Below are positions 9,741 to 9,778 of a stretch of DNA of 10,930 nucleotides, piece by piece. Source of the stretch: a virus (taxonomy: Duplodnaviria > Heunggongvirae > Uroviricota > Caudoviricetes). The notes under the pieces were generated by a model, which did no database searches, was not told the origin of the DNA, and saw nothing but the letters and a program-made list of their open reading frames with translations. Each line of letters starts with the position of its first letter. Position 1 is the stretch's first letter. Location of the stretch: IMG/VR virus record IMGVR_UViG_2531839666_000021, positions 1 to 10,930 of that record; one strand, written 5' to 3'. The translations under genes were made by a program, and so were the position numbers.

Positions 9741-9778
9741 GTTACGCTGACTCAGAGAACATCATGAGACAGCGTAAC
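9741..9778. promoter_or_regulatory. perfect 9-bp inverted repeat (GTTACGCTG ... CAGCGTAAC, 20-nt spacer) ending 1 nt before the endolysin start codon
   Basis: Left arm 9741-9749 and right arm 9770-9778 are exact reverse complements; ATG of lys is at 9780. Confidence 0.4.

Follow-up and report, generated by a model that had tools for sequence, protein, structure and literature searches.

A hairpin before the lysozyme gene of a Mu-like prophage that probably silences lys on read-through transcripts

Why should an inverted repeat adjoin the start codon of a phage lysozyme gene? The question is raised by lys in the stretch of 10,930 nucleotides analysed here (positions 1 to 10,930 of IMG/VR record IMGVR_UViG_2531839666_000021; hereafter the window). 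As originally predicted, GTTACGCTG (9741-9749) and CAGCGTAAC (9770-9778) are exact reverse complements, 20 nt apart, and one base separates the end of the repeat from the ATG at 9780, the layout being CACC GTTACGCTG ACTCAGAGAACATCATGAGA CAGCGTAAC A ATG. The accompanying claim that lys has no Shine-Dalgarno sequence (SD) holds in essence: apart from GAG(A) at 9766-9769, which falls within the 3' arm 10-11 nt 5' of the AUG, no bases resemble an SD. Two roles had been proposed for the repeat, an RNA hairpin giving translational control of lysis and, with reservations, a DNA dyad for a dimeric activator.

Setting and stability of the hairpin

The window belongs to an Sp18-type Mu-like prophage and is 97-99% identical to Sp18 of E. 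coli O157:H7 Sakai, from which it is separated by 19 gaps, mainly single-base indels, and one replaced segment; positions 7219-7885 of the window had no match in Sakai Sp18. The two sequences are identical over 9600-9900. DNA similar to the window was found in 231 of 5426 complete E. coli genomes. Two frames are split in the window and intact in Sakai, namely transposase A (1-1272 / 1164-2087) and gemA (8705-8998 / 8976-9281), which could reflect sequencing error or a decaying prophage copy. The features discussed below are these:

9219-9242, plus strand: terminator-like hairpin AAATCCCGC-N6-GCGGGATTT with TATTTT after it, in the interval from gemA to the activator gene
9283-9708, plus strand: Mor/C-family activator gene, 141 aa (Pfam Mor PF08765, E = 5e-32; Sakai ECs_4961)
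9704-9719, plus strand: predicted activator box TCTGATATTCCGCAAA, 16 bp, centre 9711.5, which is -43.5 from a start at 9755
9741-9754, plus strand: hairpin 5' arm GTTACGCTGACTCA, positions -14 to -1 of the predicted late promoter
9743-9748, plus strand: predicted -10 hexamer TACGCT (Plys equivalent), within the 5' arm, from gap-free alignment to Mu promoters
9754-9756, plus strand: predicted late transcription start (hexamer end + 7 = 9755)
9755-9764, plus strand: hairpin loop GAGAACATCA, positions +1 to +10 of the predicted late transcript
9765-9778, plus strand: hairpin 3' arm TGAGACAGCGTAAC, positions -15 to -2 of the lys initiation region and +11 to +24 of the predicted late transcript
9780-10280, plus strand: lys, lysozyme with a SAR-like N-terminus MPKLPAPLRKKLIALVLAGAGTF... 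(Pfam Phage_lysozyme, E = 6e-37; Sakai ECs_4962)

The activator gene is the sole Mor/C-family gene of the prophage; its product is 38.7% identical to Mu C (tblastn), and a spacer of 71 bp separates it from lys. A terminator scan of 9000-10400 found a single terminator-like site, the hairpin at 9219-9242, which marks the end of the early block. None was predicted in 9243-10400, hence none between the activator gene and lys, so that RNA coding for the activator meets no predicted stop before lys. A TAAACT at 9248-9253 is a candidate -10 for the activator gene. Sp18 has no separate Mor gene, and its single activator would make for a cascade of two steps, versus three in Mu. Downstream of lys, relatives have genes of the DUF2730 releasin family.

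Sp18 also carries com/mom homologues. In Sakai Sp18, a cluster of GATC sites (cgaatcGATCgtttttgtcGATCGATtgc) lies 5' of them (L006:38115-38165), recalling the region of Mu Pmom that Dam methylation controls; the activator box of lys and gene I was not seen there.

A repeat search extended the arms at lys to 9741-9754 and 9765-9778, which are 14 nt long, complementary at 13 of 14 positions (the sole mismatch is A.A at 9750/9769) and separated by a 10-nt loop. The RNA fold of 9730-9800 reached -20.2 kcal/mol, against -7.0 +/- 2.3 for shuffled sequences (z = -5.67; none of 200 as low), bearing out the RNA hairpin of the original prediction, and in the window it belongs to the six or so most stable local folds of 45 nt. 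The perfect 9-bp match, in contrast, was rejected as evidence on its own, since 1.25 such repeats with a loop of at most 30 nt are expected per dinucleotide-shuffled window (at least one in 60% of shuffles); the window itself has four loci of this kind. The weight of the lys repeat thus lies in the stability of the stem, its position and its conservation, not in the 9-mer match. The minus-strand fold at the repeat is more stable than that of the plus strand (-25.8 vs -20.1 kcal/mol). Strand asymmetry, with the plus strand favoured in 12 of 17 lineages and not in the window, was dropped as support for the window. A scan of 9100-10400 with Rfam 15 covariance models (E <= 1) gave no family match at 9741-9778, its one match being a spurious mir-942 on the minus strand (9911-9995).

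Elsewhere in the window, two other local folds match the lys hairpin in stability (about -21 to -22 kcal/mol), and further perfect inverted repeats of 9-10 bp are CCTTAAAAAG/CTTTTTAAGG at 4620-4650 and CGGTTTTAA/TTAAAACCG at 8866-8911. The sites that we grouped as other repeats or stable folds are 4620-4650, 8866-8911, 3739-3772 and 2629-2673.

The predicted access to the lys ribosome site depended strongly on where the RNA begins. Opening positions -20 to +15 cost 19.5-20.4 kcal/mol in RNAs starting at 9600, 9680 or 9741, versus 7.9-8.1 kcal/mol in RNAs starting at 9754-9756, a predicted gap of ~12 kcal/mol between long and late RNA; for positions -18 to +12 the cost was 16.0 kcal/mol in the long RNA and 4.3 in the late RNA. 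When just the 25 nt upstream of +1 were shuffled, the cost was 7.2 +/- 1.8 kcal/mol and none of 100 shuffles reached 16.0, which indicates that the block is due specifically to pairing of the promoter core with the initiation region. No such block is predicted for the late transcript.

Placement of the late promoter

In late promoters of Mu a -10 can be recognised and a -35 is missing, and the site for C is an imperfect dyad of 16 bp centred at -43.5 (PMC2582627). We reconstructed Mu starts from this statement together with the promoter features of GenBank AF083977. In Pmom, the hexamer TAAGAT follows ACCACA after 19 bp, and with +1 set at hexamer end + 7, the centre of TTAT-N6-ATAA (L130:703.5) falls exactly at -43.5, as in PMC2582627; by the same rule, the three 67-bp Mu late-promoter features in GenBank, which cite the S1-mapping paper, all span -53 to +14. 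On the hexamer alone we made a gap-free alignment of 17 activator-to-endolysin spacers (that of the window and 16 more, taken from E. coli, Citrobacter, IMG/VR contigs and Pasteurella phage Pmp9), the Sp18 equivalent of PI, and Plys, PI and Pmom of Mu. The loci had been found with a 5-sequence activator alignment, a 7-sequence version being too diverged, and a search of genome contigs with the Lys protein gave one locus only, in Citrobacter braakii. In every aligned sequence the activator box fell in a single register, -52 to -36 (...ACCGCAAA, ACCGGAAT, ACCATAAT, AGCATAAC).

In the window the box overlaps the stop codon of the activator gene (9706-9708). Within the 60 nt that precede lys, TAnnnT occurs once, as TACGCT at 9743-9748, which is -37 from the start codon; each lineage has a single TAnnnT, at -33 to -39 from the lys start, and that of Mu is at -36. 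An invariant 17-mer, TTCTGATATTCCGCAAA, has a second copy (14 of 17 positions) upstream of gene I in Sp18, where Mu has PI. At both sites a TAnGCT hexamer lies exactly 23 nt past CCGCAAA (TACGCT at lys, TATGCT at I), a pattern with 3 matches in the prophage versus 0.37 expected. A scan of 9000-10400 for consensus sigma-70 promoters found nothing, as expected for activator-dependent promoters that have no -35. We conclude that the 5' arm of the hairpin most likely holds the core of the late promoter, and from the homology to Mu we infer that the late lys transcript starts at ~9755.

With the -10 at 9743-9748 and +1 at ~9755, the whole 5' arm corresponds to -14 to -1 and would be missing from the late lys mRNA. 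The hairpin would then act only on RNA entering from upstream, not on the late lys mRNA, and its role is probably different from the one originally proposed. What holds of that proposal is a structure that buries the 14 nt before the AUG; its supposed part in controlling translation of the late lys mRNA does not fit a start predicted downstream of 9749. The idea of a DNA dyad for a Mor/C-type activator is not supported: the repeat spans -14 to +24, 38 bp in all, and is unrelated to the activator box, which sits at 9704-9719 (-43.5) and recurs at gene I. The 9-mer GTTACGCTG occurs exactly in the prophage only as the two arms, its matches with at most one mismatch number 10 against 7.5 expected, and it is absent from the repressor/ner control region.

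We consider it likely that the repeat is an RNA hairpin silencing the translation of lys on read-through transcripts, of the type known from T4 gene e. A different possibility is that the hairpin is carried by the functional late lys mRNA, whose start would be 5' of 9741, and acts there as a constitutive brake or one relieved by a factor, as with Com. A strong hairpin adjoining the AUG of a gene nearly without SD would suit such a brake, as would the use of a translational activator, Com, at the mom hairpin of Mu-like phages, given the com/mom homologues of Sp18. However, the only available TAnnnT is the one inside the arm; the register of box and hexamer is exact, as in the three mapped Mu promoters; a block of -20 kcal/mol on every lys mRNA needs an opener, and none is indicated; and the layout with the hexamer inside the 5' arm recurs in ~14 lineages (see below). 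We regard this possibility as unlikely.

At gene I of Sakai Sp18, outside the window, the promoter equivalent (L006:18858-18912) consists of the box TCCTGAAATCCCGCAAA, 23 nt and TATGCT at 18898-18903, only 6 nt before the gene I ATG at 18910. The gene I protein aligns with Mu I from its own residue 9 (residue 6 of Mu I), compatible with a start at this ATG, and the gene I mRNA would have no leader or almost none. The hexamer is flanked by an inverted repeat, TTCCCGGC / GCCGGAA, that adjoins the ATG; this repeat differs from the lys repeat and occupies the same relative place. Gene I may have the same layout for silencing read-through RNA.

Pairing in related phages

In relatives with ~86% identity, 9700-9719 is invariant and 9720-9740 varies at 9 positions, and there are only two changes in 9741-9779, one at the A.A mismatch and one in the loop. 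Position-by-position covariation was not found in this close clade, where paired positions never vary. Part of the arm conservation could stem from what each arm does by itself, one being a -10 region and the other an initiation region. Between clades the register and geometry of the stem differ; pairs were therefore not counted on one alignment, and shuffle tests were made for each lineage instead.

The next clade, in which Lys is 82-84% identical, has a GTG start and the SD GGAG. Box, spacing and hexamer position are unchanged there and the arms are different: GTTACTCT pairs with GGAGTAAC or GGAGUGAC (with G.U pairs) or, alternatively, CGGTACAGG pairs with CCYGUGCCG across the start codon. 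The 3' arm is displaced by 1 nt, and the paired element is the GGAG SD. In distant lineages, whose activators are 44-60% identical, the hexamer again lies in the 5' arm and its partner ends 3-7 nt before the lys ATG. Their arms include CTTATCC with GGATAAG, CGGTTTA with TAAACCG, TATCC(T)GTTCG with CGAACGGATA, and TTCTGTCGTTA with TAACGGACAGAA. The arm pairs across lineages (TACGCT/AGCGTA, TACTCT/GGAGTA or GGAGTG, TATCC/GGATA and AAACT/AGTTT) reveal that the partners switch together (CGC/GCG, CTC/GAG, TCC/GGA, AAC/GTT). Bulges and spacing vary and G.U pairs are used, which speaks for selection acting on pairing in RNA and against a selected DNA palindrome.

The long transcript is predicted to mask the initiation region beyond shuffled-promoter controls in 16 of 17 representatives (~14 lineages, Pmp9 included). 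In 11 of those, at most 3 of 100 shuffles reached the observed block, and the effect was modest in L081, L083 and L088, where 13-19 of 100 did. The minimum-energy fold paired the -10/+1 segment with the SD or start region in all 17, and z was negative in all 17. Mu is the exception, with no significant signal (56 of 100 shuffles reached the Mu value; fold z -1.1). A pairing at Mu Plys, GCCAUCA/UGAUGGC, was no better than chance, and Mu is not claimed as a case.

In Pasteurella phage Pmp9 (L046:1926-2004), a near-perfect dyad GTTTG-N8-CAAAC lies at about -43 as placed from the hexamer TAAACT. A 13-bp stem, AAACTCTCTTTAA / TTAAAGAGAGTTT, overlaps the hexamer and the amidase SD, is followed by TTTTTT and adjoins the amidase ATG; with its stem and T run it has the features of an intrinsic terminator. 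In this phage, some 40 bp thus accommodate terminator, promoter core and ribosome-site mask together.

Many distant lineages (L092, L099, L103, L107, L113 and others) have a second conserved hairpin, CAACCGGCTGCGCTC-GAGA-GCGCGGGTTG, located 10-45 nt past the activator stop and just 5' of the box. No U tract follows it; an atypical terminator is one possible role, an extended activator site another. At the same position, Mu and the L078/L079 group have a predicted terminator of the usual kind.

These comparisons bear on three further explanations. According to one, the activator (middle-type) transcript ends at the lys hairpin, which would serve mainly as a terminator, a pause or a processing or stability signal, with occlusion of the initiation region being secondary. 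The Pmp9 equivalent looks like a true intrinsic terminator over the promoter core, and a terminator is predicted between C and Plys in Mu and likewise in the group 2a relatives L078 and L079. The stem in the window, however, is followed by AAUGCCAAAACUCC, with no U tract (AAUGCCAAAAC), and the terminator scan found nothing there. Typical RNase III substrates have a longer stem, the 13/14 pairs at lys being short for this enzyme, and in the relatives the 3' arm is always on the SD/start region rather than at variable places within the spacer. We judge this explanation quite improbable.

It is very doubtful that the repeat serves as DNA, either as an operator at -14 to +24, bound by a dimeric repressor or another protein, or as a cruciform modulating the late promoter. 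A near-perfect palindrome does cover the -10 and +1, and the two strands of the repeat fold equally well, the minus strand even better. Against this, the arm 9-mer recurs no more than by chance and is missing from the repressor/ner control region, relatives keep the pairing and vary arm length, spacing and bulges and use G.U pairs, changes that a palindrome bound by protein would not allow, and gene I carries a different repeat at the equivalent place. Finally, a functionless palindrome, arisen by chance or as a by-product of two constraints (on the -10 region and on the initiation region), would agree with the frequency of perfect 9-bp repeats in shuffled windows, and the invariance of paired positions in close relatives is neutral in this respect, but it is highly improbable given the z of -5.7 for the full stem, the failure of all 100 promoter-segment shuffles to reach the observed block and the recurrence of promoter-to-initiation-region pairing with different sequences in ~14 lineages.

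Proposed silencing of read-through RNA and known systems

Silencing of lys on read-through RNA would proceed as follows. RNA from upstream, that is, the activator mRNA and any early read-through, would carry both arms; the hairpin would hide the 14 nt before the lys AUG, 30S subunits could not load, and no lysozyme would be made while the activator accumulates. The activator, once on its box at 9704-9719, would direct RNA polymerase to start at ~9755, the first base past the 5' arm; the start falls there because the -10 TACGCT forms part of that arm. The late lys mRNA would have no 5' arm, its 25-nt leader would be open, and lys would be translated. Read-through is expected because no terminator is predicted in 9243-10400, and we infer both the read-through RNA across the repeat and its translational effect.

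This type of mechanism has been known since T4 gene e; the case proposed here for Mu-like phages comes from computation. In T4, early long transcripts of gene e form an inhibitory structure that makes lysozyme synthesis 100-fold lower, the DNA encoding the 5' strand of the structure contains the late promoters, and the same logic holds for soc, 49 and I-TevI (PMC3014915). The locus in the window is predicted to have two elements of this type: comparison with relatives places the promoter hexamer in the 5' arm, and the hairpin (-20.2 kcal/mol) would sequester the start region with its 3' arm at -15 to -2. As in gene e, the target is a lysozyme, the hairpin over the SD or start would be on longer, earlier RNAs, and premature lysis would be avoided. 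In contrast, T4 late promoters are TATAAATA elements read by a gp55-modified polymerase, whereas that of the window is of sigma-70 type with a Mor/C-family activator at -43.5. The stem in the window stops 1 nt before the AUG, and an SD is almost absent. The phages belong to unrelated families and have no sequence similarity, and the 100-fold effect in T4 is experimental, whereas the effect in the window is predicted.

Transcripts that reach the transposase genes of IS10 and IS50 from outside include a stretch pairing with the ribosome-binding site, and RNA from the elements' own promoters does not have this stretch. This fold-back inhibition was reportedly described by Davis, Simons and Kleckner in 1985 and by Krebs/Schulz and Reznikoff. 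Similarly, the silencing segment at lys lies upstream of the gene's own predicted start site and would be present only in RNA from outside. In the insertion sequences, however, the target is a transposase and the inhibition guards against fortuitous activation, while the outside RNA in the window would be the phage's own earlier mRNA. Mom and Com offer a parallel in a Mu-type phage, again with a hairpin over the initiation region of a potentially lethal late gene. Unlike the lys hairpin, which is predicted to be absent from the functional mRNA and to need no opener, the mom hairpin forms part of the functional mRNA, and Com opens it.

The arrangement at lys is also like that at Mu Plys (PMC2582627, PMC4461284; AF083977), with a C-type activator followed by a SAR endolysin, a 16-bp box at -43.5, a TAnnnT ~36 nt before the lys start, no -35, and TCAGAGAA after the hexamer in both. 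The boxes differ in sequence (TCTGATATTCCGCAAA in Sp18, TTCCTGTCACCATAAT in Mu). The Mu cascade has three steps, with Mor acting before C, and a terminator is predicted between C and Plys; in Sp18 a single activator is present, and the interval before lys has no predicted terminator.

More tentatively, the principle may extend to Mu-like phages in which a C-type activator directly precedes the endolysin. The late promoter core (-10 to +1) would double in them as an anti-initiation-region sequence, its non-consensus hexamers and the SD or start of lys having evolved together in such a way that lysozyme comes solely from RNA initiated by the activator; the switch would then be a main safeguard of lysis timing in holin-less systems, and gene I might be similar. 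The family has the non-consensus -10 hexamers TACGCT, TACTCT, TATCCT, TATTCT and TAAACT, and such double use would explain why the late promoters keep these odd hexamers. Mu lyses its host with the SAR endolysin gp22 and a releasin (PMC9239132); as there is no holin, the time at which the SAR endolysin is synthesised largely sets the time of lysis. If the block were missing, a cell with an Sp18-type phage would make lysozyme during activator synthesis. A -10 region that is also the silencing arm would couple late-promoter firing to the translatability of lys with no extra protein. It would carry the logic of T4 gene e to unrelated, temperate, sigma-70-dependent phages that are common in pathogenic E. 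coli, and it offers a simple sequence rule by which the late promoters and lys starts of Mu-like prophages can be annotated. In a literature search, we did not find the mechanism described for Mu-like phages, and the paper on Mu lysis (PMC9239132) is silent on it.

A short upstream ORF runs from an AUG at 9764 to a UAA at 9806-9808 (14 codons, MRQRNNAKTPRTTA) and overlaps the lys start out of frame. Its AUG has GAGA 5 nt upstream, at the predicted 5' end of the late RNA. The ORF is kept in the close clade only; the sister clade has merely AUG-GAG-UAA.
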